Shown here: one piece after another, positions 1,480-22,094 of the stretch | Numbering within the stretch: the stretch's first letter is position 1 | How the letters are laid out: each line of letters opens with the position of its first letter | Position numbers and translations under genes: made by a program | Notes under the pieces: generated by a model | Told to the model about the DNA's origin: nothing | What the model saw: the letters and a program-made list of their open reading frames with translations, nothing else | Database searches by the model: none | IMG/VR virus record: IMGVR_UViG_2563366822_000008 | Origin: a virus | Lineage: Duplodnaviria > Heunggongvirae > Uroviricota > Caudoviricetes | Direction: 5' to 3' (one strand) | DNA: 24,713 nt

Positions 1480-2987
1480 TGGCATTTCTTGATGATGTGA
1501 TTGGCGTTTTTTCACCAGGATGGAAAGCGGCAAGGCTGCGTTCCCGTGCGGTGATCCAGGCTTATGAGGCCGTAAAAACGACGCGGACACACAAAGCCCG
1601 ACGGGAGAACCGAACTGCCGACCAGTTAAGCCAGTACGGGGCCGTGTCGTTACGTGAGCAGGCTCGTTACCTTGATAACAACCACGATCTGGTCATTGGT
1701 GTATTTGACAAGCTGGAAGAACGGGTGGTGGGGAAAAACGGGATTATTGTCGAGCCACATCCGGTATTACGCAATGGGGCCATTGCCCGTGATCTGGCAG
1801 CGGAGATACGTACCCGATGGAGTGAATGGTCTGTCAGTCCGGAGGTCACCGGGCAGTTTACCCGTCCGATGCTGGAACGTCTGATGCTGCGTACCTGGCT
1901 GCGCGATGGTGAGGTGTTTGCCCAGATGGTTTCCGGGCGCATAAACAGCCTGACGCCTTCTGCCGGTGTTCATTTCTGGCTGGAGGCGCTCGAGCCGGAC
2001 TTTATTCCCATGACCAGTGATGAGAGCAACAGGCTGAATCAGGGCGTGTTTGTTGATGACTGGGGGCGTCCCGAAAAATATCTGGTGTATAAAAGCCGTC
2101 CCGTATCCGGGCGGCAGATGGAAACCAAAGAAGTGGATGCAGAGCGAATGCTGCATCTTAAATTTGTTCGCCGTCTGCACCAGATGCGCGGGACGTCTTT
2201 GTTGTCCGGTGTGCTGATCCGCCTCAGTGCTCTGAAAGAGTATGAAGATTCTGAGCTGACTGCAGCAAGGATCGCCGCTGCTCTGGGGATGTACATCCGG
2301 AAAGGCGACGGACAGAGCTATGAAACGGATGGTAATGACAGCAAGGAGAATGAACGCGAGCTTACCATTCAGCCAGGCATTATTTACGACGATCTGAAAC
2401 CCGGCGAAGAAATCGGAATGGTGAAGTCGGATCGCCCCAATCCTAACCTTGAAACTTTTCGTAATGGTCAGTTGCGTGCCGTGGCTGCGGGCAGTCGTCT
2501 GAGTTTTTCCAGTACAGCGCGCAACTATAACGGCACTTACAGCGCCCAGCGTCAGGAGCTGGTTGAATCTACTGATGGCTACCTGATCCTGCAGGACTGG
2601 TTTATTGGTGCCGTCACCCGCCCGATGTACCGTGCCTGGCTGAAACAGGCTGTGGTATCCGGTGTTATCAGGCTACCCCGCGATCTGGACCGATCTTCAC
2701 TGTATACCGCGGTGTATTCCGGACCGGTGATGCCGTGGATTGACCCTGTTAAGGAGGCTGAGGCCTGGAAAATTCAGATTCGTGGTGGAGCGGCGACAGA
2801 ATCAGACTGGGTACGTGCAGGTGGTCGTAATCCGGATGATGTCAAACGTCGGCGCAAGGCCGAAATTGATGAAAACCGCAAGCTGGATCTGGTATTTGAT
2901 ACCGATCCGGCCAGTGATAAAGGAGGCAGCAGTGCCGCAACGAAACGACAGGAGCCGCAGCACACCGACGACCAGTCCGAAGAATAA
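1479..2987 (+). CDS. Portal protein
   Basis: 502-aa ORF in the portal position; its ATG overlaps the upstream stop (TGATG at 1477-1481). Not obviously lambda B-like in sequence, so the family is unassigned. The ORF-track start at 1407 is an upstream extension overlapping W. Confidence 0.8.
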   Translation: MAFLDDVIGVFSPGWKAARLRSRAVIQAYEAVKTTRTHKARRENRTADQLSQYGAVSLREQARYLDNNHDLVIGVFDKLEERVVGKNGIIVEPHPVLRNGAIARDLAAEIRTRWSEWSVSPEVTGQFTRPMLERLMLRTWLRDGEVFAQMVSGRINSLTPSAGVHFWLEALEPDFIPMTSDESNRLNQGVFVDDWGRPEKYLVYKSRPVSGRQMETKEVDAERMLHLKFVRRLHQMRGTSLLSGVLIRLSALKEYEDSELTAARIAAALGMYIRKGDGQSYETDGNDSKENERELTIQPGIIYDDLKPGEEIGMVKSDRPNPNLETFRNGQLRAVAAGSRLSFSSTARNYNGTYSAQRQELVESTDGYLILQDWFIGAVTRPMYRAWLKQAVVSGVIRLPRDLDRSSLYTAVYSGPVMPWIDPVKEAEAWKIQIRGGAATESDWVRAGGRNPDDVKRRRKAEIDENRKLDLVFDTDPASDKGGSSAATKRQEPQHTDDQSEE

Positions 2988-3000
2988 TTCCTGGTTCAGG

Positions 3001-4971
3001 ATGCAGGCAGGTCACCAGAGTGACGCGGATATTTATATTTATGACGAGATTGGTTTCTGGGGTGTTACGGCGAAGCAGTTTATCAGTGATCTGAATGCAC
3101 TGGGCGATATCACCCACATTAATCTCCACATTAATCTCCATATTAATTCACCGGGTGGCGATGTCTTTGAAGGCATCGCCATTTTTAATGCACTGAAAAC
3201 ACATGGTGCGTCCATTACCGTTTATGTCGACGGTGTGGCGGCGTCAATGGCGTCGGTCATTGCGATGGTGGGAAACCCGGTCATTATGCCGGAAAACTCC
3301 TTCATGATGATTCATAAACCATTTGGCTTTACGGGCGGTGATGCGGAGGACATGCGCACCTATGCCGACCTGCTCGATAAAGTTGAGGCGGTTCTGTTAC
3401 CCGCTTATGCACAGAAAACCGGGAAAACCACCGATGAAATTGCTGCCATGCTGGCGGATGAGACCTGGATGTCCGGTGCCGAATGTCTGGCACAGGGATT
3501 TGCTGATCAGGTGACACCAGCCGTTAAGGCAATGGCATGTATTCAGTCAAAACGTACAGAGGAATTTAAAAAGATGCCGGAATCCATTCGAAATATGATT
3601 ACTCCGCCACGCAACAGTGCTCCACGCGTACAGGATGATGGACCTGCAGCCTCCCGGACGCCAGTGCAGGCAGCAGCACCCGTGGTGGATGAAAACAGCA
3701 TCCGTGCGCAGGTCCTGGCAGAGCAAAAAGCGCGTGTAAACGGTATTAATGATCTGTTTGCCATGTTTGGCGGGCGTTATCAGTCGTTGCAGGCTCAGTG
3801 TCTTGCCGATCCTGAATGTTCGCTGGAGCAGGCCCGCGAAAAGCTGTTGAACGAGATGGGGCGCGAGTCCACGCCATCCAATAAAAATACCCCGGCTCAT
3901 ATTTATGCCGGTAACGGTAATTTTGTGGGGGACGGGATCCGCCAGGCGCTGATGGCGCGCGCCGGGTTTGAAAAAACTGAACGTGATAATGTCTACAACG
4001 GGATGACCCTGCGTGAATATGCCCGTATGTCACTGACTGAACGTGGTATTGGTGTTTCCAGTTATAACCCGATGCAGATGGTCGGTGCGGCGTTCACACA
4101 CAGTACGTCTGACTTCGGTAATATTCTGCTGGATGTTGCGAACAAAGCCATTCTGCAGGGCTGGGAAGATGCCCCTGAAACCTATGAACAGTGGACGCGG
4201 AAAGGTCAGTTGTCTGATTTTAAAATTGCCCATCGTGTGGGTATGGGGGGCTTCAGTGCTCTGCGTCAGGTGCGTGAAGGGGCAGAATATAAATACGTCA
4301 CCACCGGAGATAAACAGGCCACTATTGCACTGGCGACCTATGGCGAGCTGTTCAGTATCACCCGTCAGGCCATTATCAATGATGATCTGAATATGCTGAC
4401 CGATGTCCCGATGAAGCTGGGCCGTGCGGCGAAATCCACTATTGCCGATCTGGTTTATGCCATTCTGACGTCTAACCCGAAAATCTCCACAGATAATGTA
4501 AGTCTGTTCGATAAAGCGAAACATGCAAACGTACTGGAGAGCGCGGCAATGGACGTGGCATCGCTGGATAAAGCCCGCCAGTTGATGCGCGTTCAGAAAG
4601 AGGGTGAGCGTCATCTGAATATTCGTCCTGCGTTCGTACTGGTACCGACGGCGATGGAGTCTGTTGCTAACCAGGTCATTCGCTCCTCAAGTGTCAAGGG
4701 GGCTGACATTAACGCCGGTATTATTAACCCGGTGAAAGATTTTGCGACCGTTATTGCAGAGCCTCGTCTTGATGATAACAGCCAGACCACCTTCTACCTG
4801 GCTGCGTCCAAAGGCTCCGATACGATTGAAGTGGCTTATCTCAACGGTGTGGATACGCCATATATTGATCAGATGGAGGGCTTCAGTGTGGATGGCGTGA
4901 CAACGAAAGTGCGTATTGACGCTGGTGTTGCGCCAGTTGATCACCGCGGCCTGGTGAAATGTACGGCGTAA
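3001..4971 (+). CDS. Prohead protease (ClpP/S14-like) - scaffold/linker - major capsid protein fusion
   Basis: The N-terminal ~180 aa carry ClpP-like motifs (INSPGGDV, ASMASVIAMVG, MMIHKP), followed by an Ala/Pro/Gln-rich linker, and the C-terminal ~330 aa are capsid-like. Start taken at ATG 3001, just after the portal stop. The track ORF 2740-4971 includes a 5' extension inside the portal gene. Confidence 0.8.
   Translation: MQAGHQSDADIYIYDEIGFWGVTAKQFISDLNALGDITHINLHINLHINSPGGDVFEGIAIFNALKTHGASITVYVDGVAASMASVIAMVGNPVIMPENSFMMIHKPFGFTGGDAEDMRTYADLLDKVEAVLLPAYAQKTGKTTDEIAAMLADETWMSGAECLAQGFADQVTPAVKAMACIQSKRTEEFKKMPESIRNMITPPRNSAPRVQDDGPAASRTPVQAAAPVVDENSIRAQVLAEQKARVNGINDLFAMFGGRYQSLQAQCLADPECSLEQAREKLLNEMGRESTPSNKNTPAHIYAGNGNFVGDGIRQALMARAGFEKTERDNVYNGMTLREYARMSLTERGIGVSSYNPMQMVGAAFTHSTSDFGNILLDVANKAILQGWEDAPETYEQWTRKGQLSDFKIAHRVGMGGFSALRQVREGAEYKYVTTGDKQATIALATYGELFSITRQAIINDDLNMLTDVPMKLGRAAKSTIADLVYAILTSNPKISTDNVSLFDKAKHANVLESAAMDVASLDKARQLMRVQKEGERHLNIRPAFVLVPTAMESVANQVIRSSSVKGADINAGIINPVKDFATVIAEPRLDDNSQTTFYLAASKGSDTIEVAYLNGVDTPYIDQMEGFSVDGVTTKVRIDAGVAPVDHRGLVKCTA
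3114..3150 (+). repeat. Tandem direct repeat: CCACATTAATCTC x2 plus a degenerate third copy, in frame (encodes HINLHINLHINS)
   Basis: Read directly at 3114-3139 (two perfect 13-nt copies) and 3139-3150 (diverged copy), immediately before the INSPGG motif of the protease. Confidence 0.9.
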
Positions 4972-7411: not shown

Positions 7412-7436
7412 GCCCCGGTTATGCGGGGCTTTTTTG
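7412..7436 (+). terminator. Intrinsic terminator after V
   Basis: GCCCCG-GTTATG-CGGGGC hairpin (7412-7429) followed by TTTTTT (7430-7435). Confidence 0.65.
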
Positions 7437-7448
7437 CAGGTGGAGAAC

Positions 7449-7856
7449 ATGATGTTTCTGAAACAGGACACGTTTAATTATGAAAAACAGTCCGTGGTGC
7501 TCAGTGAGCTGTCCGGGCTGCAGAGAATTGAATATCTGATGTTTGTTCAGCAGCGAACGGCAAAGTTTGATGCCGGGGAGGGAGAACTGCCGGAGGCTGA
7601 ACGACAGATTGCTTTTCTGCGGATGGGGATGGATATCAATGCCTGGCTGGTTTCCCGCTCACTGTGGAATGCGGAACAGTCTCAGGATGTTGAGACGCTT
7701 TACGCATCCGTTATTACAACATGGTCGTATGATGCCCTGGGGGCGGGGGCGGGGGCGGGGGCGGGGGCGGAGATGGTTCTGTCGCTGAGCGGTATGGGGG
7801 CCATTGATAATGCCGGGGATTTGGAGCATGAGGTGCTGACGCCGGAAAAGTCCTGA
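7449..7856 (+). CDS. G: Tail assembly chaperone G
   Basis: MMFLKQD...LSELSGLQRIE matches the lambda G N-terminus (MFLK...LSELSALQRIE). GGTGGAG RBS. Stop TGA at 7854-7856. Confidence 0.85.
   Translation: MMFLKQDTFNYEKQSVVLSELSGLQRIEYLMFVQQRTAKFDAGEGELPEAERQIAFLRMGMDINAWLVSRSLWNAEQSQDVETLYASVITTWSYDALGAGAGAGAGAEMVLSLSGMGAIDNAGDLEHEVLTPEKS
7739..7769 (+). repeat. (GGGGGC)x5 hexanucleotide tandem repeat inside G, encoding (Gly-Ala)5
   Basis: Read directly: five G5 tracts separated by single C. In frame, giving GAGAGAGAGA in the protein. Confidence 0.95.
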
Positions 7857-8194
7857 CGCGGGAAATGCAGTTTGTCATGCGGCTTGCCCGGGAGTTCCGG
7901 CGGGCAGACTGGCGGCGGATGCTGTCGGAAATGTCGGCCACTGAGCTTGGTGAGTGGGGCGATTATTTCCGGATGCAGAGCTTCAGTGATGTGTGGATGG
8001 ATGCGCAGTTTGCCTCGCTGAAGGCATTGATCGTGAGAATGGTGTCCGGCAGCAGTGATGCTGCGGTGGCTGATTTCAGCCTTTTACCGGAAGAGAACGG
8101 GATACCGGAGCGAACGGACGAAGAACTGATGCATCTTGGGGAAGGTATTTCCGGAGGTGTGCGTTATGGACCAGATAGCCAACCTGGTCATTGA
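7832..8194 (+). CDS. T: T segment of the tail assembly chaperone G-T fusion, predicted to be expressed by -1 programmed ribosomal frameshift from G
   Basis: The -1 frame relative to G is open from 7832 (after an in-frame TGA at 7829-7831) to 8194 and overlaps the last eight codons of G. The only candidate slip site in the overlap is GGAAAAG at 7844-7850. Position between G and H is as in lambda. Confidence 0.6.
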   Translation, partial: GADAGKVLTREMQFVMRLAREFRRADWRRMLSEMSATELGEWGDYFRMQSFSDVWMDAQFASLKALIVRMVSGSSDAAVADFSLLPEENGIPERTDEELMHLGEGISGGVRYGPDSQPGH

Positions 8195-11100
8195 TTTGGG
8201 GATTGATGCGGCAGAGTTTAAAAATGAAATTCCCCGTATCAAAAACCTTCTGAATGGTGCAGCCAGCGATGCAGAACGGTCTTCTGCCCGTATGCAGCGT
8301 TTTATGGAGCGTCAGACTCAGGCCGCCCGGCAGACAACGCAGGCGGCGTCTTCGGCTGCAACAGCCGCATCCGTCCATGCGCAGACGGTGGAGAAGAACG
8401 CACAGGCTCATGAACGCATGGCCCGCGAGGTGGAGAAAACCCGCCAGCGTATGGAGGCACTGAGCCAGAAAATGCGCGAGGAACAGGCGCAGGCCATGGC
8501 TCTGGCGGAGGCTCAGGATAAAGCAGCTGCTGCGTTTTATCGTCAGATTGACAGTGTGAAACAGGCCAGTGCGGGGCTGCAGGAATTACAGCGTATTCAG
8601 CAGCAGATCCGACAGGCCAGAAACAGTGGCGGGATTGGTCAGCAGGATTATCTGGCACTGATTTCTGAGGTTACGGCGAAAACCCGTGTTCTTACACAGG
8701 CTGAGGAAGAGGCTACCCGACAGAAAGTGGCGTTTATCCGTCAGCTTAAAGAGCAGGCAACCCGCCAGAATCTTTCTTCTTCTGAGTTGCTTCGTGCTAA
8801 GGCTGCCCAGCTGGGGGTAAGCAGTGCTGCAGAAGTGTATATCCGCAAAATGGAGCAGGCAGGAAAAACCACGCATTCGCTGGGTCTGAAAAGTGCAGCG
8901 GCCCGCCAGGAGATAGGCGTTCTGATAGGTGAACTGGCCCGCGGCAATTTAGGGGCGCTGAGGGGATCCGGGATAACGCTGGCTAACCGTGCCGGATGGA
9001 TAGACACTCTGATGTCACCGAAAGGCATGATGCTTGGCGGTATTGCCGCGTCCGTCTATGGTCTGGGTAAAGCCTGGTATGACGGTCAGAAGGAGGGGGA
9101 AGAATTTAACCGCCAGTTGTCGCTGACGGGGCATTATGCCGGAGTCACTGCCGGGCAGCTGTGGACGCTCAGTCGTGCTATTTCCGGGAATGGTATCACG
9201 CAACATGCTGCAGCCGGTGTGCTGGCTCAGGTGGTGGGGAGTGGTGCATTTCGTGGAAACGATATCGGTATGGTGGCGAGAGCTGCCGCACAGATGGAGC
9301 GATCGGTTGGCCAGTCGGTCAGCGATACCATAAATCAGTTTAAGCGGCTGAAGGATGATCCTGTAAATGCCGCGAAGGCTCTGGACAATGAGCTGCATTT
9401 TCTTACTGCCACTCAGCTTGAGCAGATACGTGTCCTTGGGGATCAGGGACGGTCCAGTGATGCTGCACGGATAGCCATGTCTGCACTGGCAGAGGAAACC
9501 GGTCGGCGTACTGCGGATATTGATAATAACCTCAATGCGCTTGGCAGTACGCTGAAGTATCTGTCTGATTTGTGGAGTCGTTTCTGGGATGCGGCCATGA
9601 ATATTGGTCGTGAAGACTCGCTGGATGAACAGATTGCCGCTTTACAGGAGAAAGTGTCGCGGGCGAAAAGACTCCCCTGGACGGCATCATCTTCTCAGGT
9701 TGAATACGATCAGCAGCGTCTTAACGATCTTCAGGAGAAAAAACGCCAGAAGGATTTGCAGGATGCAAAAGAGCAGGCAGAGCGGAATTATCAGGAGCAA
9801 CAGAAACGACGTAATGCTGAAAATGCTGCACTGAACCGGATGAATGAAACGGAAGCAGCACGACATCAGCGTGAAATTGCGCGTATTAATTCCATGCAGT
9901 ACGCCGATCAGGCTGTCAGGGATGCAGCGATACAACGTGAAAATGAACGTTACGAGAAAGCCCTGGCATCCGGTAAGAAAAAAACACGCGAAACCCGTAA
10001 TGATGAGGCCACCCGGTTATTGCTGCAGTACAGTCAGCAACAGGCACAGGTGGAAGGACAGATTGCTGCTGCAAGACAGTCAGCAGGCATTGCCACTGAA
10101 AAGATGACAGAAGCGCATAAACAGCTTCTGGCTCTGCAGCAGCGCATCAGCGATCTGGACGGGAAAAAACTGACGGCAGATGAAAAGAGTGTGCTGGCCC
10201 GTAAAGATGAACTGATTCAGGCACTGACGCTGCTGGATGTAAAACAGCAGGAGCTTCAGAAACAGACGGCACTCAACGATCTGAAGAAAAAAACAATTCA
10301 GCTGACCAGTCAACTGGCTGAAGAAGAGCTCGCTCAGCGTCAGCAACATGACCTGGATATCGCCACGGTGGGTATGGGTGATCAGCAGCGGCAGCGATAT
10401 CAGGTACAACTGAGTCTTCGCCAGAAATACCAGCAACAGCTGGAGCAGTTGAGGCGGGATAGTGAGCAGAAAGGGACATATAACACGGATGACCACAGAA
10501 AGGCCGAGCAGGCGCTGACGGAGAGCCTGAACCGACAACTGAATGAGAATCGCCGTTACTGGCAACAGCTTGAAGTTGTGCAGGGTAACTGGAAAAACGG
10601 AGTCCTGCGTGCATTTCAGGATTTTACCGTGGATGCAGACAATACGGCAGGAACAGCAGAACAGGTGTTCTCGTCAGCCTTCAGCAACATGGGAAATGGC
10701 CTGGCAACTTTTGTCACTACCGGCAAACTCAACTTCAAATCCTTCACCTCTTCGGTGCTGTCAGATATGGCGAAAATCCTGGCGCAGGCAACCATGATGA
10801 AATCGATAAAAGGGATTGGCAGTGTACTGGGATTTGATCTCAGCAGCCTTTCCCTGAATGCCAATGGGGGGATTTATCAGTCTGCTGATTTGAGTCGTTA
10901 CAGTGGCACGGTGGTTAACCGTCCGACGTTTTTTGCTTTTGCAAAAGGCGCGGGTGTGATGGGGGAAGCTGGACCTGAAGCCATTCTGCCACTGCGTCGT
11001 GGTGCTGACGGTAAGCTGGGGGTTGTGGCGGATATTGGTGGTTCAGGTATGGCGATGTTTGCCCCGCAGTACAACATCGAGATCAATAACGATGGCACGA

Positions 11101-11219
11101 ACGGGCAGATAGGTCCGGCTGCCCTGAAGGTGCTTTATGACCTTGGGAAAAAAGCGGCAGCGGACTTTATGCAACAGCAGGCCCGTGATGGTGGTCGGTT
11201 AAGTGGAGCATATCGGTAA
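8166..11219 (+). CDS. H: Tail tape measure protein H (about 1017 aa)
   Basis: N-terminus MDQIANLVIDLGIDAAEFKNE matches lambda H MAEPVGDLVVDLSLDAARFDEQ, and the C-terminus INNDGTNGQIGPAALKVLYDL...RDGG matches lambda H. Long Gln/Glu/Arg-rich coiled-coil centre. GGAGG RBS at 8152-8156. Confidence 0.9.
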   Translation: MDQIANLVIDLGIDAAEFKNEIPRIKNLLNGAASDAERSSARMQRFMERQTQAARQTTQAASSAATAASVHAQTVEKNAQAHERMAREVEKTRQRMEALSQKMREEQAQAMALAEAQDKAAAAFYRQIDSVKQASAGLQELQRIQQQIRQARNSGGIGQQDYLALISEVTAKTRVLTQAEEEATRQKVAFIRQLKEQATRQNLSSSELLRAKAAQLGVSSAAEVYIRKMEQAGKTTHSLGLKSAAARQEIGVLIGELARGNLGALRGSGITLANRAGWIDTLMSPKGMMLGGIAASVYGLGKAWYDGQKEGEEFNRQLSLTGHYAGVTAGQLWTLSRAISGNGITQHAAAGVLAQVVGSGAFRGNDIGMVARAAAQMERSVGQSVSDTINQFKRLKDDPVNAAKALDNELHFLTATQLEQIRVLGDQGRSSDAARIAMSALAEETGRRTADIDNNLNALGSTLKYLSDLWSRFWDAAMNIGREDSLDEQIAALQEKVSRAKRLPWTASSSQVEYDQQRLNDLQEKKRQKDLQDAKEQAERNYQEQQKRRNAENAALNRMNETEAARHQREIARINSMQYADQAVRDAAIQRENERYEKALASGKKKTRETRNDEATRLLLQYSQQQAQVEGQIAAARQSAGIATEKMTEAHKQLLALQQRISDLDGKKLTADEKSVLARKDELIQALTLLDVKQQELQKQTALNDLKKKTIQLTSQLAEEELAQRQQHDLDIATVGMGDQQRQRYQVQLSLRQKYQQQLEQLRRDSEQKGTYNTDDHRKAEQALTESLNRQLNENRRYWQQLEVVQGNWKNGVLRAFQDFTVDADNTAGTAEQVFSSAFSNMGNGLATFVTTGKLNFKSFTSSVLSDMAKILAQATMMKSIKGIGSVLGFDLSSLSLNANGGIYQSADLSRYSGTVVNRPTFFAFAKGAGVMGEAGPEAILPLRRGADGKLGVVADIGGSGMAMFAPQYNIEINNDGTNGQIGPAALKVLYDLGKKAAADFMQQQARDGGRLSGAYR

Positions 11220-11557: not shown

Positions 11558-12256
11558 ATGCAGGATATTCCACAGGAAACACATCATGAGACGACACGCC
11601 TCACTCAGTCAGCCCAGGTGGTGCTCTGGGAAATCGATCTGACAGTGGTCGGTGGAGAACGTTATTTTTTCTGTAATGAGCAGAACGAAAAAGGTGAGCC
11701 GGTCACCTGGCAGGGGCGACAGTATCAGGCGTATCCCATTCAGGGGACGGGATTTGAACTGAACGGCAAGGGCAGTGCTGCCCGTCCGACACTGACGGTT
11801 TCTAACCTGCACGGCATGGTCACCGGGATGGCGGAAGACCTGCAGAGTCTGGTCGGAGGAACGGTGGTCCGGCGTAAGGTTTACGCCCGTTTTCTGGATG
11901 CGGTGAACTTCGTCAACGGAAACAGTGACGCCGATCCGGAGCAGGAGGTGATCAGCCGCTGGCGCATCGAGCAGTGCAGCGAACTGAGCGCGGTGAGTGC
12001 CTCTTTTGTACTGTCCACGCCGACGGAAACGGACGGTGCCGTTTTTCCGGGACGTATCATGCTGGCCAACACCTGCACCTGGACCTATCGCGGTGATGAG
12101 TGCGGTTATCACGGTCCGGCGGTCGCGGATGAATATGATCAGCCGACGTCCGATATCACGAAGGATAAATGCAGCAAATGCCTGAGCGGCTGTAAGTTTC
12201 GCAATAACGTCGGCAACTTTGGCGGCTTCCTTTCCATTAACAAACTTTCGCAGTAA
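11558..12256 (+). CDS. L: Minor tail protein L (Cys-rich C-terminus, Fe-S cluster type)
   Basis: 232 aa, near-identical by eye to lambda L (MQDI.QET...VVLWEIDL...GERYFFCNEQNEKGEPVTWQGRQYQ...CSKCLSGCKFRNN). Confidence 0.9.
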   Translation: MQDIPQETHHETTRLTQSAQVVLWEIDLTVVGGERYFFCNEQNEKGEPVTWQGRQYQAYPIQGTGFELNGKGSAARPTLTVSNLHGMVTGMAEDLQSLVGGTVVRRKVYARFLDAVNFVNGNSDADPEQEVISRWRIEQCSELSAVSASFVLSTPTETDGAVFPGRIMLANTCTWTYRGDECGYHGPAVADEYDQPTSDITKDKCSKCLSGCKFRNNVGNFGGFLSINKLSQ

Positions 12257-12261
12257 ATCCC

Positions 12262-13005
12262 ATGACACAGATAGAATCAGCGATTCTGGCGCACGCCCGG
12301 CGATGTGCGCCAGCGGAGTCGTGCGGCTTCGTGGTAAGCACGCCGGAGGGGGAAAGATATTTTCCCTGCGTGAATATCTCCGGTGAGCCGGAGGATTATT
12401 TCCGGATGGCTCCGGAGGACTGGCTGCAGGCAGAAATGCAGGGTGAGATTGTGGCGCTGGTCCACAGCCACCCCGGTGGTCTGCCCTGGCTGAGTGAGGC
12501 CGACCGGCGGCTGCAGGTGCAGAGTGATTTGCCGTGGTGGCTGGTTTGCCGGGGGGCGATTCACAAGTTCCGCTGTGTGCCACATCTTTCCGGGCGGCGC
12601 TTTGAGCACGGGGTGACGGACTGTTACACGCTGTTCCGGGATGCTTATCATCTGGCGGGGATTGAGATGCCGGATTTTCATCGCGAGGATGACTGGTGGC
12701 GTCACGGTCAGAATCTCTATCTGGATAATCTGGAGGCCACAGGGCTGTATCAGGTGCCGTTGTCATCAGCACAACCGGGCGATGTGCTGCTGTGCTGTTT
12801 TGGTTCATCGGTGCCGAATCATGCCGCCATTTACTGTGGTGATGGCGAGCTGCTGCACCATATTCCTGAACAACTGAGCAAACGAGAGAGGTACACCGAC
12901 AAATGGCAGCGACGCACACACTCCCTCTGGCGTCACCGGGCATGGCACGCATCTGCCTTTACGGGGATTTACAACGATTTGGCCGCCGCATCGACCTTCG
13001 AGTGA
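12262..13005 (+). CDS. K: Tail tip assembly protein K (JAB/MPN metalloprotease-like plus NlpC/P60-like domains)
   Basis: MTQIESAILAHARRCAPAESCGFVV...HSHPGG (JAMM-type H-x-H motif) and a Cys/His peptidase-like second half. The 3' end overlaps the start of I. Confidence 0.85.
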   Translation: MTQIESAILAHARRCAPAESCGFVVSTPEGERYFPCVNISGEPEDYFRMAPEDWLQAEMQGEIVALVHSHPGGLPWLSEADRRLQVQSDLPWWLVCRGAIHKFRCVPHLSGRRFEHGVTDCYTLFRDAYHLAGIEMPDFHREDDWWRHGQNLYLDNLEATGLYQVPLSSAQPGDVLLCCFGSSVPNHAAIYCGDGELLHHIPEQLSKRERYTDKWQRRTHSLWRHRAWHASAFTGIYNDLAAASTFE

Positions 13006-13550
13006 AAACGGGGTCCGAAGCCATCCGGGCGCTGGCCATGCAGAACCCGGCGTTTCGTCAGAAACTGAGCGACGGCTGGTACCAGGTACGCATTGCCGGG
13101 CGTGATGCAGGTGAAACCGAATTGTCTGCCCGTCTTAATGAGCCGCTGGCAAATGGTGCCGTGATCCACATCGTGCCGCGTCTGGCGGGAGCTAAAAGTG
13201 GCGGTGTGTTTCAGGTGGTGCTGGGGGCGGCGCTGATTGCGGTGGCATGGTGGAACCCTGTGGGCTGGCTGGGTGCCGCGGCTGTATCGGGCATGTATGC
13301 GGCAGGGGCCAGTATGATCCTGGGCGGAGTGGCGCAGATGCTGGCACCGAAAGCCAGGACGCCCACGGCAGCAAGTACAGATAACGGCAAACAGAACACC
13401 TATTTCTCCTCACTGGATAACATGGTTGCCCAGGGCAATGTTCTGCCGGTTCTGTACGGTGAAATGCGCGTGGGGTCGCGGGTGGTATCTCAGGAGATCA
13501 GCACAGCAGATGAAGGTGATGGTGGGCAGGTTGTGGTGATTGGTCGCTGA
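12903..13550 (+). CDS. I: Tail tip assembly protein I
   Basis: MAATHTLPLASPGMARICLYGDLQRFGRRIDL... and the C-terminus NGKQNTYFSSLDNMVAQGNVLPVLYGEMRVGSRVVSQEISTADEGDGGQVVVIGR match lambda I. Confidence 0.85.
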   Translation: MAATHTLPLASPGMARICLYGDLQRFGRRIDLRVKTGSEAIRALAMQNPAFRQKLSDGWYQVRIAGRDAGETELSARLNEPLANGAVIHIVPRLAGAKSGGVFQVVLGAALIAVAWWNPVGWLGAAAVSGMYAAGASMILGGVAQMLAPKARTPTAASTDNGKQNTYFSSLDNMVAQGNVLPVLYGEMRVGSRVVSQEISTADEGDGGQVVVIGR

Positions 13551-13567
13551 TGAAAAACGTTTATGTG

Positions 13568-13598
13568 AAACCGCCTCCGGGCGGTTTTGTCGTTTATG
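13568..13598 (+). terminator. Hairpin with T-rich tail between I and J (possible attenuator)
   Basis: AAACCGCC-TCCG-GGCGGTTT (13568-13587) followed by TGTCGTTTAT. The T-tract is interrupted, so any termination is probably partial. Confidence 0.35.
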
Positions 13599-13609
13599 GA
13601 GCGTGAGGA

Positions 13610-16600
13610 ATGGGTAAAGGCAGCAGTAAGGGGCATACTCCGCGCGAAGCGAAGGACAACCTGAAGTCCACGCAGCTGCTGAGTGTGATCGATGCCATCA
13701 GCGAAGGGCCGGTTGAAGGTCCGGTGGATGGATTAAAAAGCGTGCTGCTGAACAGTACGCCAGTGCTGGACAGTGAGGGGAATACCAATATCTCCGGCGT
13801 CACGGTGGTGTTCCGGGCCGGTGAGCAGGAGCAGACACCGCCGGAGGGATTTGAATCCTCCGGCTCCGAGACGGTGCTGGGTACGGAAGTGAAATACGAC
13901 ACGCCGATCACCCGCACCATCACGTCGGCAAACATTGACCGACTGCGTTTTACCTTCGGCGTGCAGGCACTGGTGGAAACCACCTCAAAGGGGGACAGGA
14001 ATCCGTCGGAAGTCCGCCTGCTGGTTCAGATCCAGCGTAATGGTGGCTGGGTGACGGAAAAAGACATCACCATTAAGGGTAAAACCACTTCACAGTATCT
14101 GGCCTCGGTGGTGGTGGGTAACCTGCCGCCGCGCCCGTTCAATATCCGGATGCGCAGGATGACGCCGGACAGCACCACAGACCAGCTGCAGAACAAAACG
14201 CTCTGGTCGTCATACACCGAAATTATCGATGTGAAACAGTGCTACCCGAACACGGCACTGGTCGGCGTGCAGGTGGACTCGGAGCAGTTCGGCAGCCAGC
14301 AGGTGAGCCGTAATTATCATCTGCGCGGGCGCATTCTGCAGGTGCCGTCGAACTATAACCCGCAGACGCGGCAATACAGCGGTATCTGGGACGGAACGTT
14401 TAAACCGGCATACAGCAACAACATGGCCTGGTGTCTGTGGGATATGCTGACCCATCCGCGCTACGGCATGGGGAAACGTCTTGGTGCGGCGGATGTGGAT
14501 AAATGGGCGCTGTATGTCATCGGCCAGCATTGCGAGCAGTCGGTGCCGGACGGTTTTGGCGGCACGGAGCCGCGCATCACCTGTAATGCGTACCTGACCA
14601 CACAGCGTAAGGCGTGGGATGTTCTCAGTGATTTCTGCTCGGCGATGCGCTGTATGCCGGTATGGAACGGGCAGACGCTGACGTTCGTGCAGGACCGACC
14701 GTCGGATAAGGTGTGGACCTATAACCGCAGTAATGTGGTGATGCCGGATGATGGCGCGCCGTTCCGCTACAGCTTCAGCGCCCTCAAGGACCGCCATAAT
14801 GCCGTTGAGGTGAACTGGATTGACCCGGATAACGGCTGGGAGACGGCGACAGAGCTTGTGGAGGACACGCAGGCCATTGCCCGTTACGGTCGTAACGTCA
14901 CGAAGATGGATGCCTTTGGCTGTACCAGCCGGGGGCAGGCACATCGCGCCGGGCTGTGGCTGATTAAAACAGAACTGCTGGAAACGCAGACCGTGGACTT
15001 CAGCGTGGGCGCAGAAGGGCTTCGCCATGTGCCGGGCGATGTCATTGAAATCTGTGATGATGACTATGCCGGTATCAGCACCGGCGGGCGCGTGCTGGCG
15101 GTAAACAGCCAGACCCGGACGCTGACGCTCGACCGTGAAATCACGCTGCCATCCTCCGGTACCACGCTGATAAGCCTGGTTGACGGAAGTGGCAATCCGG
15201 TCAGCGTGGAGGTCCAGTCCGTCACCGACGGCGTGAAGGTGAAAGTGAACCGGGTTCCTGACGGCGTTGCTGAATACAGCGTGTGGGGGCTGAAGCTGCC
15301 GACGCTGCGCCAGCGCCTGTTCCGCTGCGTGAGTATCCGTGAGAACGACGACGGCACGTATGCCATCACCGCCGTGCAGCATGTACCCGAAAAAGAAGCC
15401 ATCGTGGATAACGGGGCGCACTTTGACGGCGACCTGAGCGGCACGGTGAATGGCGTCACGCCGCCCGCGGTGCAGCACCTGACTGCCGAAGTCACCGCAG
15501 ACAGTGGGGAATACCAGGTGCTGGCCCGCTGGGACACGCCGAAGGTGGTGAAGGGCGTGAGCTTCCTGCTCCGTCTGACCGTAACAGCGGATGACGGCAG
15601 TGAGCGGCTGGTCAGCACGGTCCGGACGGCGGAAACCACATACCGCTTCAGGCAACTGGCGCTGGGGAACTACAGGCTGACAGTCCGGGCGGTAAATGCG
15701 TGGGGGCAGCAGGGCGATCCGGCGTCGGTATCGTTCCGGATTGCCGCACCGGCAGCACCGTCGAGGATTGAGCTGACGCCGGGCTATTTTCAGATAACCG
15801 CCACGCCGCATCTTGCGGTTTATGATCCGACGGTACAGTTTGAGTTCTGGTTCTCGGAAAAGCGGATTACCGATATCAGGCAGGTTGAAACCACAGCCCG
15901 CTACCTTGGCACGGGGCTGTACTGGATAGCCGCCAGTATCAATATCAAACCGGGCCATGATTATTACTTTTATATCCGCAGTGTGAACACCGTTGGCAAA
16001 TCGGCATTCGTGGAGTCCGTCGGTCGGGCGAGCGATGATGCGGAAGGTTACCTGGATTTTTTCAAAGGCCAGATAACCGAATCCCATCTCGGCAAGGAGC
16101 TGCTGGAAAAAGTCGAGCTGACGGAGGATAACGCCAGCAGACTGGAGGAGTTTTCGAAAGAGTGGAAGGACGCCAACGATAAGTGGAATGCCATGTGGGC
16201 TGTCAAAATTGAGCAGACCAAAGACGGCAAACATTATGTCGCGGGTATTGGCCTCAGTATGGAGGACACGGAGGAAGGCAAACTGAGTCAGTTTCTGGTT
16301 GCCGCTAACCGTATCGCATTTATTGACCCGGCAAACGGGAATGAAACGCCGATGTTTGTGGCGCAGGGCAACCAGATATTCATGAACGACGTGTTCCTGA
16401 AGCGCCTGACGGCCCCCACCATTACCAGCGGTGGAAATCCACCGGTATTTTCCCTGACATCAGACGGAAAGCTGACCGCTAAAAATGCGGATATCAGTGG
16501 CAGTGTGAATGCGAACGCCGGGACGCTCAACAATGTCACGGTAAATGAAAACTGTACGATTAAGGGCATGCTGGAGGCGACTCAGGTCAGAGGTGACTTC

Positions 16601-17746: not shown

Positions 17747-17756
17747 TGGGGTGAAT

Positions 17757-20700
17757 ATGGCAGTAAAGATTTCAGGTGTACTGAAAGACGGCACAGGAAA
17801 ACCGGTACAGAACTGCACAATCCAGCTGAAAGCAAAACGTAACAGCACCACGGTGGTGGTGAACACGGTGGCCTCTGAAAATCCGGATGAAGCCGGGCGT
17901 TACAGCATGGACGTTGAGTACGGTCAGTACAGCGTTATTCTGTTGGTGGAAGGCTTCCCGCCGTCACATGCCGGGACCATCACCGTGTATGAAGATTCTC
18001 AACCCGGTACGCTGAATGATTTTCTCGGTGCCATGACGGAGGATGATGCCCGTCCTGAGGCACTGCGCCGTTTTGAACTGATGGTGGAAGAGGTGGCGCG
18101 TAACGCGTCCGTGGTGGCACAGAACACGGCAGCCGCGAAGAAGTCAGCCAGTGATGCCAGCACATCTGCCCGTGAGGCGGCAACCCATGCGACTGATGCT
18201 GCAGGCTCAGCACGCGCAGCCAGCACGTCAGCCGGACAGGCCGCGTCGTCGGCTCAGTCAGCATCTTCCAGCGCAGGAACGGCATCAACAAAGGCCAGTG
18301 AAGCATCGAAAAGTGCTGCTGCTGCAGAGTCCTCAAAAAGCGCGGCAGCTACCAGTGCCGCTGCGGCGAAAACGTCAGAAACGAATGCGGCAGCGTCACA
18401 ACAATCAGCAGCCACTTCTGCATCCGCCGCGACCACGAAGGCGTCAGAAGCAGCCACCTCAGCCCGGGATGCGGCGGCCTCAAAAGAGGCAGCGAAATCA
18501 TCAGAAACGAACGCATCATCAAGCGCCAGTAGTGCCGCTTCCTCGGCAACGGCGGCAGGCAATTCCGCGAAGGCGGCAAAGACGTCTGAGACAAACGCCA
18601 GGTCTTCTGAAACGGCAGCGGGACAGAGCGCCTCGGCTGCGGCAGGCTCAAAAACAGCGGCTGCATCATCTGCCAGTGCCGCCTCAACAAGTGCCGGGCA
18701 GGCCTCAGCCAGTGCCACCGCTGCCGGAAAGTCGGCAGAAAGTGCCGCCTCGTCTGCTTCAACAGCCACAACGAAGGCTGGCAAAGCCACTGAACAGGCC
18801 AGTGCAGCAGCGAGGTCTGCTTCCGCAGCGAAGACATCCGAGACGAACGCGAAAGCGTCGGAAACCAGCGCAGAATCCTCAAAAACGGCTGCCGCATCGT
18901 CCGCCAGTTCGGCGGCTTCATCGGCATCATCGGCGTCAGCTTCAAAAGATGAGGCGACCAGACAGGCGTCAGCAGCGAAGGGCAGCGCCACGACAGCATC
19001 CACGAAGGCGACAGAGGCTGCTGGCAGTGCGACAGCGGCAGCACAGAGCAAAAGTACGGCAGAAACCGCGGCAACGCGCGCCGAGACAGCGGCAAAACGG
19101 GCAGAGGATATTGCATCCGCCGTGGCGCTTGAGGATGCGAGCACGACGAAAAAGGGGATAGTCCAGCTCAGTAGTGCGACCAACAGCACTTCCGAGTCAC
19201 AGGCGGCAACGCCAAAAGCCGTTAAGGCCGCGTATGACCTGGCTAACGGGAAATACACCGCACAGGATGCAACGACAGCACAGAAAGGGATAATCCAGTT
19301 AAGCAGCGCGACCAACAGCACGTCTGAAACGCTGGCGGCAACGCCAAAGGCAGTAAAAGCAGCCAATGACAATGCTGAGAAACGTCTGCAGAAAGATCAG
19401 AACGGTGCGGATATCCCTGGCAAAGATACCTTTACGAAAAATATTGGTGCCTGCCGTGCCTTCGGTGGGTCAGTAAGCACAACAACAGGAAACTGGACGA
19501 CTGCACAGTTTATCGAGTGGCTGGATTCTCAGGGAGCATTTAACCATCCCTACTGGATGTGCAAGGGGTCCTGGTCTTATGGCAATAATAAAATCATTAC
19601 TGATACTGACTGCGGTAATATTCATCTCGCCGGAGCTGTCATTGAAGTAATGGGGATAAAGTCAGCGATGACGATCCGCATTACCACACCGACCACCTCC
19701 ACTGGTGGTGGAACAACTAACGCCCAGTTTACCTATATTAATCACGGAACAGATTATTCACCTGGCTGGCGAAGGGACTATAACTCCAGAAATAAGCCAA
19801 CGGCATCAGAGATCGGGGCGTTACCGTCAGGTGGAACAGCAGTATCATCAGTTAATCTGGCTTCAAAAGGTCGGGTAACCGCGCTGACAGACAATACGCA
19901 GGGGGCAGCAGGTCTTGAGTTATACGAGGTGTATAACAACGGATATCCAACAGCGTATGGAAATATCATTCACCTGAAAGGGAGGACAGCCGTTGGCGAA
20001 GGTGAGTTACTCATCGGCTGGAGTGGTACAAGCGGTGCTCATGCTCCGGCATTTATTCGTTCACGACGGGATATGACCGACGCAAACTGGTCGCCGTGGG
20101 CGCAGCTTTACACCTCGGCTCATCCTCCTGCAGAGTTTTATCCAGTCGGTGCACCAATCCCGTGGCCATCAGATACCGTTCCGTCTGGTTATGCCCTGAT
20201 GCAGGGGCAGACTTTTGACAAATCTGCATACCCGAAACTTGCAGTTGCTTATCCGTCAGGCGTGATCCCTGATATGCGTGGCTGGACGATTAAGGGCAAG
20301 CCCGCCAGTGGTCGGGCCGTATTATCTCAGGAACAGGACGGCATTAAATCGCACACCCACAGCGCCAGCGCATCCAGTACGGATTTGGGGACGAAAACCA
20401 CATCGTCGTTTGATTACGGAACCAAATCCACGAATAACACCGGGGCGCATACCCATAGTATTAGCGGGACCGCAAATAGTGCCGGTGCGCACCAACACAA
20501 GAGTTCCGGTGCATTTGGTGGCACGAACACGAGCATTTTCCCTAATGGTTATACCGCGATTTCAAATCTAAGCGCGGGGATTATGAGCACAACAAGCGGT
20601 AGTGGCCAGACTCGTAATGCAGGGAAGACATCATCAGATGGTGCTCATACCCACTCGCTGTCCGGTACTGCTGCAAGCGCAGGCGCACATGCACATACTG

Positions 20701-20831
20701 TCGGTATTGGTGCTCATACGCACTCCGTTGCGATTGGTTCACATGGACACACCATCACCGTTAACGCTGCTGGTAACGCGGAAAACACCGTCAAAAACAT
20801 CGCATTTAACTATATTGTGAGGCTTGCATAA
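17757..20831 (+). CDS. stf: Side tail fibre protein Stf (about 1024 aa)
   Basis: N-terminus [26 protein letters not shown]... and the His-rich C-terminus (GAHTHS...[28 protein letters not shown]...[11 protein letters not shown]) match lambda Stf as recalled. Long Ala/Ser/Thr-rich centre. The GTG at 17751 offered by the track is less likely than ATG 17757. Confidence 0.85.
19150..19370 (+). repeat. Two tandem copies of a tail-fibre repeat unit (KGI[VI][21 protein letters not shown]) within stf
   Basis: Direct repeat seen at both protein and DNA level, first copy about 19150-19240 and second copy about 19280-19370, diverged at synonymous and some replacement sites. Confidence 0.8.
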
Positions 20832-21406
20832 TGGCATTCAGAATGAGTGAACAACCACGGACCATAAAAATTTATAATCTGCTGGCCGGAACTAATGAAT
20901 TTATTGGTGAAGGTGATGCATATATTCCGCCTCATACAGGTCTGCCAGCAAACAGTACCGATATTGCACCGCCAGATATTCCGGCTGGTTTCGTGGCTGT
21001 TTTCAACAGTGATGAGTCATCGTGGCATCTCGTTGAAGATCATCGGGGTAAAACGGTTTATGACGTGGCTTCCGGCGACGCGTTATTTATTTCTGAACTC
21101 GGTCCGTTACCGGAAAATGTTACCTGGTTATCGCCGGAAGGGGAGTTTCAGAAGTGGAACGGCACAGCCTGGGTGAAGGATACGGAAGCAGAAAAACTGT
21201 TCCGGATCCGGGAGGCGGAAGAAACAAAAAACAACCTGATGCAGGTAGCCAGTGAGCATATTGCGCCGCTTCAGGATGCTGCAGATCTGGAAATTGCAAC
21301 GGAGGAAGAAATCTCGTTGCTGGAAGCATGGAAAAAGTATCGGGTATTGCTGAACCGTGTTGATACGTCAACTGCACAGGATATTGAATGGCCAGCACTG
21401 CCGTAG
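20831..21406 (+). CDS. tfa: Tail fibre assembly protein Tfa
   Basis: 191 aa, near-identical by eye to lambda Tfa ([39 protein letters not shown]...). Start overlaps the stf stop (TAATG). Confidence 0.9.
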
Positions 21407-21482: not shown

Positions 21483-21505
21483 ATCTCACACCGAGATTAT
21501 TTTTT
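21483..21505. terminator. Short hairpin plus T-tract at the convergent tfa / recombinase junction
   Basis: ATCTC-ACACC-GAGAT (21483-21497) followed by TATTTTTTAT. Weak 5-bp stem; the T-tract overlaps the recombinase stop codon. Confidence 0.3.
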
Positions 21506-22094
21506 ATATGTCAGGTGTCTGAAGTTTTGCTTTGGCTCTTAAAATGGTTTGCCGCGAGGTTTTGAATTCCCGGGCAATGGCACTTATACTTACACCTGAC
21601 TTAATTCGTTCGAATACCGCCTGTTTCTGTTCTTCATTTAACACAGGTGGTCGACCAAAACGTTTCCCTGCGCCGCGGGCTCTTACTATCCCGGAATGAG
21701 TGCGTTCAAGTAAAAGGTCTCGTTCAAATTCAGCGACTGCTGAAATTACTTGCATCATCATTTTTCCTGTTGGACTGGTCAGGTCAATGCCCCCCAATGC
21801 TAAGCAATGCACTCTGATACCTGTTTCGGTCAGTTGTTCCACTGTTTTCCTGATATCCATTGCATTACAACCAAGGCGATCCAGTTTTGTCACAATCAAT
21901 TGATCACCACATTTCAGGCGAGCAAGCAACCGGTTAAAACCAGGACGCTCACTGGTTGCTGCTGAGCCGCTAATGTGTTCTTCGATTATTTGCTGAGGTT
22001 TGATTTTAAAACCTGCACTTTCGATTTCCCGGCGTTGATTTTCGGTGGTCTGATCCAGCGTTGATATCCGACAGTAAGCAAAAATTCGAGACAT
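21504..22094 (-). CDS. pinQ: Serine recombinase (resolvase/invertase family), Pin-like
   Basis: 196 aa. N-terminal catalytic region with the nucleophile in YCRISTLDQ, and a C-terminal helix-turn-helix ([17 protein letters not shown]). The specific symbol is assigned from gene order (tfa-pin-small gene-MFS) and is uncertain; the family call is firm. Confidence 0.85.

Follow-up and report, generated by a model that had tools for sequence, protein, structure and literature searches.

A rare in-frame GGGGGC repeat in tail chaperone gene G of a lambdoid prophage: probable origin by slippage, with G-quadruplex potential as a by-product

The tail assembly chaperone gene G of a lambdoid prophage includes a perfect run of the hexamer GGGGGC. 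The run is on the coding strand, corresponds to a canonical G-quadruplex (G4) motif and lies upstream of the position at which ribosomes would be expected to shift into the overlapping T frame. The question raised by this arrangement is whether the repeat is a signal that acts on frameshifting, a locus whose length is selected to vary, or simply a coding microsatellite that happens to resemble a G4. We have addressed this using the whole stretch of DNA analysed here (24,713 nucleotides, referred to below as the window), its relatives in phage, bacterial and metagenome collections, and structural prediction for both the RNA and the protein.

Gene G, its repeat and the putative slip site

The window covers the late (structural) region of the prophage. 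Its gene content includes a terminase nuclease domain, the portal, a ClpP-capsid fusion and Z, U, V, G, T, H, M, L and J. These are followed, after J, by a tail fibre gene, a DNA invertase and then a host MFS transporter. The features of interest around gene G are listed here in order of position.

7412 to 7437, plus strand: terminator-like hairpin (GCCCCG-GTTATG-CGGGGC followed by a T-run) found by a scan, between V (the major tail gene) and G.
7449 or 7452 (ATG) to 7854-7856 (TGA), plus strand: gene G, tail assembly chaperone (Pfam PF06894 Phage_TAC_2, E = 1.7e-37; exact protein look-up).
7739 to 7770, plus strand: perfect hexamer repeat (GGGGGC)5.3 (TRF, raw sequence, shuffle control, G4Hunter).
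7832 to 8194, plus strand: open stretch in the -1 frame, the T part of G-T (Pfam PF06223 Phage_tail_T, E = 3.9e-15; frame translation).
7844 to 7850, plus strand: putative -1 slippery heptamer G GAA AAG (frame analysis, conservation and analogy with lambda G/GT).
7865 (ATG) to 8194, plus strand: annotated T ORF, inside the -1 open stretch.
8166 to 11219, plus strand: tape measure gene H (Pfam TMP_2, TMP_4 and Tape_meas_lam_C).

The G-T pair has matches to Phage_TTP_12 and to the TMP families on its two sides. With the PF06894 and PF06223 domains and the gene order V-G-T-H, the region has the composition of a lambda-type chaperone locus. An exact look-up identified the 134-aa form of the G protein as WP_001569825.1 / ELF13595.1 of Escherichia coli KTE142, while the 135-aa form (from the first ATG) has no exact protein record. 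Two of the features listed serve as context for the repeat: H, which encodes the binding partner of G and G-T, and the upstream hairpin, which is outside the repeat and whose homologous site in phage mEp460 is annotated as a rho-independent terminator.

TRF describes the repeat (7739-7770) as having a period of 6, 5.3 copies, 100% matches and the consensus GGGGGC. The raw sequence reads CCCT-(GGGGGC)5-GGAGATGG and is composed of five G5 tracts whose spacers are single C residues. In the frame of G the units are read as GGG GCG codons and give (Gly-Ala)5, which occupies residues 97-106 of the 134-aa protein. The repeat is a real feature. When (GGGGGC)3 was searched for with up to two mismatches, this was the single match in the window, and 0/100 dinucleotide-preserving shuffles gave a match at the same tolerance. 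A regular expression for the canonical G4 motif (G3+ N1-7, four tracts), applied to both strands of the 24.7 kb window, returned only 7739-7767 on the plus strand. The repeat has a G4Hunter score of 3.2, compared with 1.48 for the next-best site in the window. From the end of the repeat (7768-7770) to the start of the heptamer (7844) there is a gap of 73-75 nt, with the repeat upstream.

The first-pass annotation of this locus, made from the letters of the window and their open reading frames, was correct about the basic properties of the repeat. These include its sequence, strand and frame (TRF, raw sequence and translation), its (Gly-Ala)n product, the retention of frame when slippage involves whole units (the unit being 6 nt), its fit to the canonical G4 motif and its distance of about 75 nt from the slip site.

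The T frame is -1 relative to G and overlaps its 3' end. A TGA at 7829-7831 closes the -1 frame upstream, so that it is open from 7832 onwards only, and the stop codon of G occupies 7854-7856; the ribosome would therefore have to enter the T frame at positions 7832-7853, the 22 nt before the G stop. The sole candidate in this interval is G GAA AAG, whose zero-frame codons GAA AAG specify the Glu-Lys of a C-terminal Pro-Glu-Lys. We take this heptamer to be the probable slip site, using lambda G/GT as a model (PMC5009743). It departs from the strict X XXY YYZ form, and re-pairing in the P site would require a G-U pair. The sequence CCGGAAAAGTCCTGA is found at a fixed offset in 110 of the 114 related loci, and P131, E132 and K133 never vary across 45 aligned sequences, which include homologues down to 55% identity. 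The C-terminal tail around Pro-Glu-Lys is variable across this alignment and is predicted to be disordered. A search of curated phage records and relatives for a joined G-T CDS found none annotated.

Allele lengths among relatives and the origin of the repeat

The region of the window that spans 746 nt occupies 728 nt in all 17 phage matches (mEp460, cdtI, Ayreon, Tritos and others) and in 59/59 sampled E. coli matches. Alignment indicates that the 18-nt difference is exactly three repeat units. In these relatives Gly-Ala-Gly-Ala is encoded by GGGTGC-GGGGGC, a site of two units with an interruption. Among the complete genomes, two units are present in about 1,784 of the 1,786 E. coli records carrying the gene, nearly all relatives having the interrupted form. 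Exactly two of the 1,786 (the complete genomes of strains 1919D62 and PSJ-07) contain three units, and 0/1,786 contain four or five. The IMG/VR viral contigs are similarly uniform in length: 99/104 have the ancestral GGGTGC-GGGGGC and the remaining 5/104 have perfect (GGGGGC)2. Metagenome contigs yielded five perfect two-unit alleles and nothing longer, and no perfect allele was found in the species-representative genomes.

The rare long alleles were recovered by a search of 5.8 billion proteins. Those with four or five units are limited to a few contigs and are distributed over at least three sequence backgrounds. In addition to that of the window, these include a second background with (Gly-Ala)5 (protein P0002, four samples), which at the DNA level is (GGGGGC)5 in locus L115, and a third with (Gly-Ala)4 (P0003), which is (GGGGGC)4 in locus L116. 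Exact look-ups of hypothetical G proteins carrying varied numbers of Gly-Ala pairs in two backgrounds gave the following distribution.

Background of the window: two pairs on at least 1,000 contigs and five pairs on one contig; one, three, four, six and seven pairs absent.
Second background: two pairs on thousands of contigs, three pairs on 14, four pairs on two and five pairs on one (four samples); six pairs absent.

No allele with six or more units was found in any of these collections. The expanded alleles of this lineage (at least three units) consist of perfect units only and never retain GGGTGC.

Several further variants were encountered. Across the family the site has the form Ala-Leu-Gly-x-[Gly/Ala]-[Ala/Gly], and expansion is confined to the GAGA lineage. 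A more distant sequence from Shigella flexneri encodes (Gly-Ala)3 from a different, interrupted tract (GGCGCG-GGCGCG-GGGGCG). One variant (P0029) is frameshifted inside the G-run and is the single out-of-frame case seen. A 182-aa protein (P0001), considered as a possible giant Gly-Ala expansion, was rejected: about 54 aa of G are duplicated within it. A literature search concerning this repeat, or polymorphism of this kind in phage G genes, found nothing relevant.

Copy number had been expected to differ between related prophages, and the locus had been proposed as hypervariable. The first expectation is borne out in that alleles of 2, 3, 4 and 5 units exist; they are rare, however, and the second does not hold. 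A length other than two units is seen in only 2/1,786 E. coli records and in none of the 17 phages or 104 IMG/VR contigs. The locus is not hypervariable; it is a coding microsatellite whose length changes stepwise and at low frequency.

The relationship between the alleles can be followed in the flanking DNA, for which we compared 710 nt of G and T around the repeat. There are 0 differences between the window and FDAARGOS_433, which has the ancestral allele, and 2 between the window and strain 08-00022, which has (GGGGGC)2. The other five-unit allele (L115) has 10 differences from the window. It matches the two- and three-unit alleles in its own background at every flanking position, and there is 1 difference from mEp460. 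The combination of perfect tandem units with whole-unit differences in length, between sequences that differ at 0-2 flanking positions within a background, is that of a coding microsatellite. So too is the contrast between a common interrupted allele and the uninterrupted alleles of three or more units in this lineage. Interruptions stabilise microsatellites.

We consider it likely (a probability of about 0.8) that slippage in an mEp460/cdtI-like lambdoid prophage of E. coli KTE142 gave rise to the repeat, which would be a coding microsatellite of recent origin, rare and in frame, and that the G4 motif is a by-product. The starting point would be the common ancestral tract, GGGTGC-GGGGGC, with its two interrupted units. 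A synonymous T-to-G change (GGT to GGG) would erase the interruption and generate (GGGGGC)2, after which slipped-strand mispairing would occasionally insert whole units to give three, four or five. The canonical G4 motif would arise at four or more units as a consequence of this expansion. The G/G-T frameshift would rely on the conserved CCG GAA AAG just before the G stop, not on the G4. The six extra residues would be inserted into the final helix predicted for the G core, and the resulting allele would be neutral to mildly harmful rather than useful.

Judging from the backgrounds, expansion appears to have occurred at least twice. Since three- and four-unit intermediates are lacking in the background of the window, the route from two to five units there could have been either a multi-unit jump or short-patch recombination from the other five-unit lineage. 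Such a transfer of five units between backgrounds is possible because the nearest differences distinguishing the window from the other five-unit lineage are at 7702 (37 nt upstream of the repeat) and 7821 (51 nt downstream). The occurrence of five units in both backgrounds could hint at a favoured length, though two observations are too few to establish one.

G-quadruplex potential, the protein model and a possible cost of expansion

The G4 potential of the different alleles was estimated with ViennaRNA (as the gain in ensemble energy) and with G4Hunter.

Ancestral GGGTGC-GGGGGC: ViennaRNA ensemble gain 0; G4Hunter 1.48.
Two and three perfect units: G4Hunter 1.88 and 2.56, respectively; ViennaRNA gain -9 to -16 kcal/mol (two-layer G4).
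Four and five perfect units: G4Hunter 3.12 and 3.2, respectively; ViennaRNA gain -57 to -64 kcal/mol, model values that are too high, since five layers are more than a loop of one nucleotide can bridge.

For the longer alleles it is more realistic to expect three layers, with the surplus guanines accommodated in the loops. According to these models, canonical G4 potential is limited to alleles with at least four units. The first-pass annotation had suggested G4 prediction as a check on the motif, and in these predictions the five-unit repeat scores very high.

The same annotation had treated the Gly-Ala run as a linker in the chaperone, and the protein models contradict this. AlphaFold models the two-unit protein (best mean pLDDT 87.3; range of the five models 85.8-87.3) with the GAGA sequence, residues 97-100, inside a continuous helix (93-106), for which 10-residue blocks have mean pLDDT values of 96 and 95. 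The helix is flanked by the invariant residues W91, S92, A95, L96, L104, L106 and S107. With five units the helix is divided into two (93-96 and 104-112), residues 98-102 have a pLDDT below 50 and the mean pLDDT of three models out of five is only 67-70, a low confidence that is partly to be expected, the alignment having no homologous residues at the insertion. The structural argument is entirely one of AlphaFold models, since no solved homologue was found by sequence at E values up to 1 and a Foldseek search of the PDB gave nothing better than E = 2.6. As modelled, the repeat is not a pre-existing linker, and its expansion places six residues in the last helix of the G core. At the level of the genome at least, an insertion of this size in its final predicted helix is something the tail chaperone tolerates.

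For a prophage that stays resident, the expansion could be neutral or mildly harmful. A more specific proposal, compatible with the microsatellite explanation and adding to it a claim about fitness, is that expansion is costly. An RNA G4 (or a DNA G4/R-loop on the non-template strand) would cut the synthesis of G and G-T, or the additional residues would disturb the last helix; tails would be poor and selection would keep alleles of four or more units rare. The steep drop in allele counts with length, ending with none at six or more units, is in agreement with this. So is the distribution of the alleles, the 17/17 isolated plaque-forming phages bearing the short ancestral form and the expanded alleles being known from bacterial or metagenome assemblies only. 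The disrupted helix of the AlphaFold model points in the same direction. In addition, canonical three-layer RNA G4s accounted for 0/168 sites in E. coli rG4-seq, and an RNA G4 within a coding sequence is able to hinder translation (PMC6974567). A low slippage rate alone would, however, yield the same frequency spectrum, and the prophages with four or five units keep their neighbouring genes intact and of normal length. We therefore regard a cost as possible and advance it tentatively.

Frameshifting, other explanations and comparison with known systems

It had also been suggested that the repeat, as an mRNA structure close to the slip site, could affect -1 frameshifting. This link is not supported by the sequences of the relatives or by the position of the repeat. 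CCG GAA AAG is kept in relatives that have no G4: the motif is present in 0/17 phages, 0/104 IMG/VR contigs and 0/1,786 E. coli records. Because only alleles with at least four units have predicted G4 potential, while the slip site is conserved in the relatives, the G4 cannot, on this comparison of sequences, be a conserved part of the G/GT frameshift mechanism. As to position, known modulators are within a few nucleotides of the slip site, as against a repeat that ends at 7768-7770 for a heptamer at 7844. The known 5' attenuator hairpin (that of SARS-CoV) is about 4 nt upstream of its slip site; G4 frameshift stimulators are immediately downstream and are known from synthetic or human constructs only, natural use of a G4 in recoding being still unknown as of 2016 (PMC5009743, PMC12809536).

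The one conceivable route from the repeat to frameshifting is an indirect one, by way of ribosome load, and none of the present observations favours it. Ribosome load alters frameshifting at IS3, dnaX and prfB, with effects at ribosome-stalling motifs (PMC6815119), and lambda tail assembly depends on the G:G-T ratio, which is approximately 30:1 (PMC5009743). Two proposals of this type can be considered. In the broader one, the four- and five-unit alleles would represent a recurrent, naturally occurring, very stable canonical RNA G4 in an essential late ORF of a phage whose host, E. coli, has a transcriptome otherwise devoid of such motifs. By reducing the flow of ribosomes through G, it would shift either the amount of G made or the G:G-T ratio, and tail assembly would be affected in turn. 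We consider this unlikely. If it were true that the G4 lowers ribosome flux, the alleles of 2, 3, 4 and 5 units would constitute a natural titration of G4 effects on bacterial translation and frameshifting.

The narrower proposal, that an RNA G4 in the late mRNA paces the ribosomes and so tunes -1 frameshifting and the G:G-T ratio, is quite unlikely. The motif is certainly canonical, on the sense strand and very high-scoring, and the related HRAS hras-2 DNA (G4-G5 tracts with single-C loops) folds into a parallel G4 with a Tm above 90 C in 100 mM KCl (PMC3169596). Ribosome traffic would provide a means of acting at a distance (PMC6815119) on a ratio that is important in lambda (PMC5009743). 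More than 99% of relatives, however, have the same slip site without a G4 motif, and the repeat, unlike the attenuators and stimulators described above, would be roughly 60 nt beyond the rear edge of a ribosome positioned on the slip site. The load effects described come from ribosome-stalling motifs (PMC6815119), and no stalling structure is predicted downstream here. Compared with shuffles, Watson-Crick structure is in no way unusual at the repeat (z = -0.32), between the repeat and the slip site (z = 0.43) or downstream (z = 0.53). A local variant, in which tracts 2-5 would form a G4 roadblock promoting slippage on tract 1, was considered and rejected by reasoning: over so short a spacing a structure would not persist ahead of the ribosome.

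It is highly improbable that the repeat is an adaptive contingency or hypervariable locus, with a length selected to vary a linker in the chaperone. Alleles of 2, 3, 4 and 5 units do exist across several backgrounds, but variation among close genomes is very rare (2/1,786 records), the common allele bears a stabilising interruption and the site is in a predicted helix between the invariant residues listed above. Nor could such changes act as an on/off switch, since a 6-nt unit preserves the frame and the sole out-of-frame variant is P0029. An error of sequencing or assembly in the length of the repeat is hardly credible: G-rich low-complexity tracts are error-prone and P0029 is frameshifted within its G-run, but an independent assembly made from reads (Logan SRR640020) reproduces 6,405 nt of the window without a difference, five units included, the protein has a RefSeq WP accession and a UniRef cluster with 6 members, five units recur in a second background (4 samples) and three-unit alleles are present in two complete genomes.

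The microsatellite explanation makes this an ordinary coding polymorphism in a well-known phage gene. It also serves as a caution that a striking G4 motif close to a recoding site need not be a recoding signal. The natural series of 2, 3, 4 and 5 units, in near-identical genes, spans the predicted G4 threshold in a gene whose product ratio is functionally important. It provides a convenient test of whether RNA G4s impede bacterial ribosomes or alter frameshifting through ribosome load.

Several known systems resemble the locus in part. The HRAS hras-2 sequence has the same organisation of G4-G5 tracts with single-C separators (…GGGGCGGGGCGGGGGCGGGGGC…) and experimentally gives a very stable parallel G4 of three layers with spare guanines in the loops, but it is DNA, belongs to a human promoter and affects transcription-factor binding (PMC3169596). 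The SARS-CoV attenuator and the synthetic or human G4 stimulators are, like an RNA G4 here, structured RNAs sharing an mRNA with a slip site; they are about 4 nt upstream or directly downstream of the shift site, whereas the present repeat is 73-75 nt upstream and is missing from nearly all relatives. In the C9orf72 repeat, one reading frame gives poly(Gly-Ala). This repeat (GGGGCC) is likewise a G-rich hexamer that forms an RNA G4 (mentioned in PMC5009743). It differs in being eukaryotic and non-coding, with hundreds or thousands of units and repeat-associated non-ATG translation, as against five units in a normal ORF of a bacterial virus.

The slippery heptamer of lambda is G GGA AAG, compared with G GAA AAG here, and at what we take by eye to be the equivalent position lambda G has Ser-His-Ala-Glu and no repeat. 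The programmed -1 frameshift that produces lambda gpG/gpGT was reportedly described in Levin 1993 and in Xu, Hendrix and Duda 2004 and 2013, and is reviewed in PMC5009743. The two systems have in common the Phage_TAC_2 and Phage_tail_T domains, the order V-G-T-H, a T frame at -1 over the end of G and, just before the G stop, a heptamer containing A-AAG that is here a candidate slip site. They differ in that frameshifting is here read from the sequence.

A further parallel is with in-frame coding microsatellites that expand by slipped-strand mispairing. These similarly have perfect tandem units with whole-unit changes among near-identical relatives, a common allele that is interrupted and stable, and frequencies that drop with length. 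Two properties set the present case apart: its G5C hexamer gains a G4 motif once four units are reached, and its host gene is an essential phage morphogenesis gene.

Length and frame variants of the chaperone gene

Two proteins from the large protein search depart from the tail assembly chaperone encoded by G, one in reading frame and the other in length:

7739-7805 (matching segment), P0029, a G variant of 112 aa from Logan (5 member sequences)
7449-7856 (all of G), P0001, a homologue of 182 aa from E. coli (NCBI)

Inside the G-run P0029 passes to the -1 frame of the window and ends …ALGAGGGDGSVAERYGGH*. This switch indicates that out-of-frame slippage or read errors occur too within the G5 tracts, and either would truncate the chaperone. 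P0001 is a separate, larger length variant: about 54 residues of G are duplicated internally and in frame, so that ILRMGMDINAW…SLSG is present twice.

Clustered with the G protein of the window are many NCBI G proteins labelled 'partial', of 59-86 aa, which stop just short of the repeat region. Their ends point to draft assemblies whose contigs break within G. Several lambdoid prophages per genome with this sequence in common are the likely reason; alternatively, coverage may drop at the G-rich tract.

State of two related prophages

Two relatives of the window are as follows:

12700-15393, locus L004, E. coli FDAARGOS_433 (NZ_CP023899.1)
1269-1733 onward, locus L119, E. coli 08-00022 (NZ_CP013662.1)

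The G-T region of the FDAARGOS_433 prophage is the same as that of the window except for the repeat. This prophage is degraded: the tape measure gene has given way to a 'tail tip domain' fusion of 1.5 kb, the genes for the tail fibre are only partial, and the terminase is absent upstream of the portal. Of the perfect (GGGGGC)2 alleles, the one nearest to the window is that of strain 08-00022, in which the tape measure gene is annotated as a frameshifted pseudogene.

Other features of the window

Further repeats, reading frames and regulatory candidates were identified elsewhere in the window:

3114-3147 (+), 12-nt tandem repeat CCACATTAATCT, 2.8 copies, 95% matches
7412-7437 (+), terminator-like hairpin, 6 G-C pairs followed by a T-run
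11609-12952 (-), antisense ORF of 447 aa inside the L/K genes
14210-16234 (-), antisense ORF of 674 aa inside J
21504-22094 (-), resolvase/invertase-family gene (Pfam Resolvase and HTH_7)

The CCACATTAATCT repeat lies within the ClpP-protease/capsid fusion gene (2740-4971) and, with its unit of 12 nt, is in frame. Codon bias probably accounts for the very long antisense ORFs in J and L/K.

The hairpin is strong and sits in the late operon with the major tail gene V on one side and G on the other. It could set the ratio of V to G/T/H expression; the homologous site in phage mEp460 carries a rho-independent terminator annotation. The resolvase/invertase-family gene adjoins the genes for the tail fibre and its assembly (17751-21406), and this proximity suggests a putative invertible host-range switch similar to Pin/Gin.
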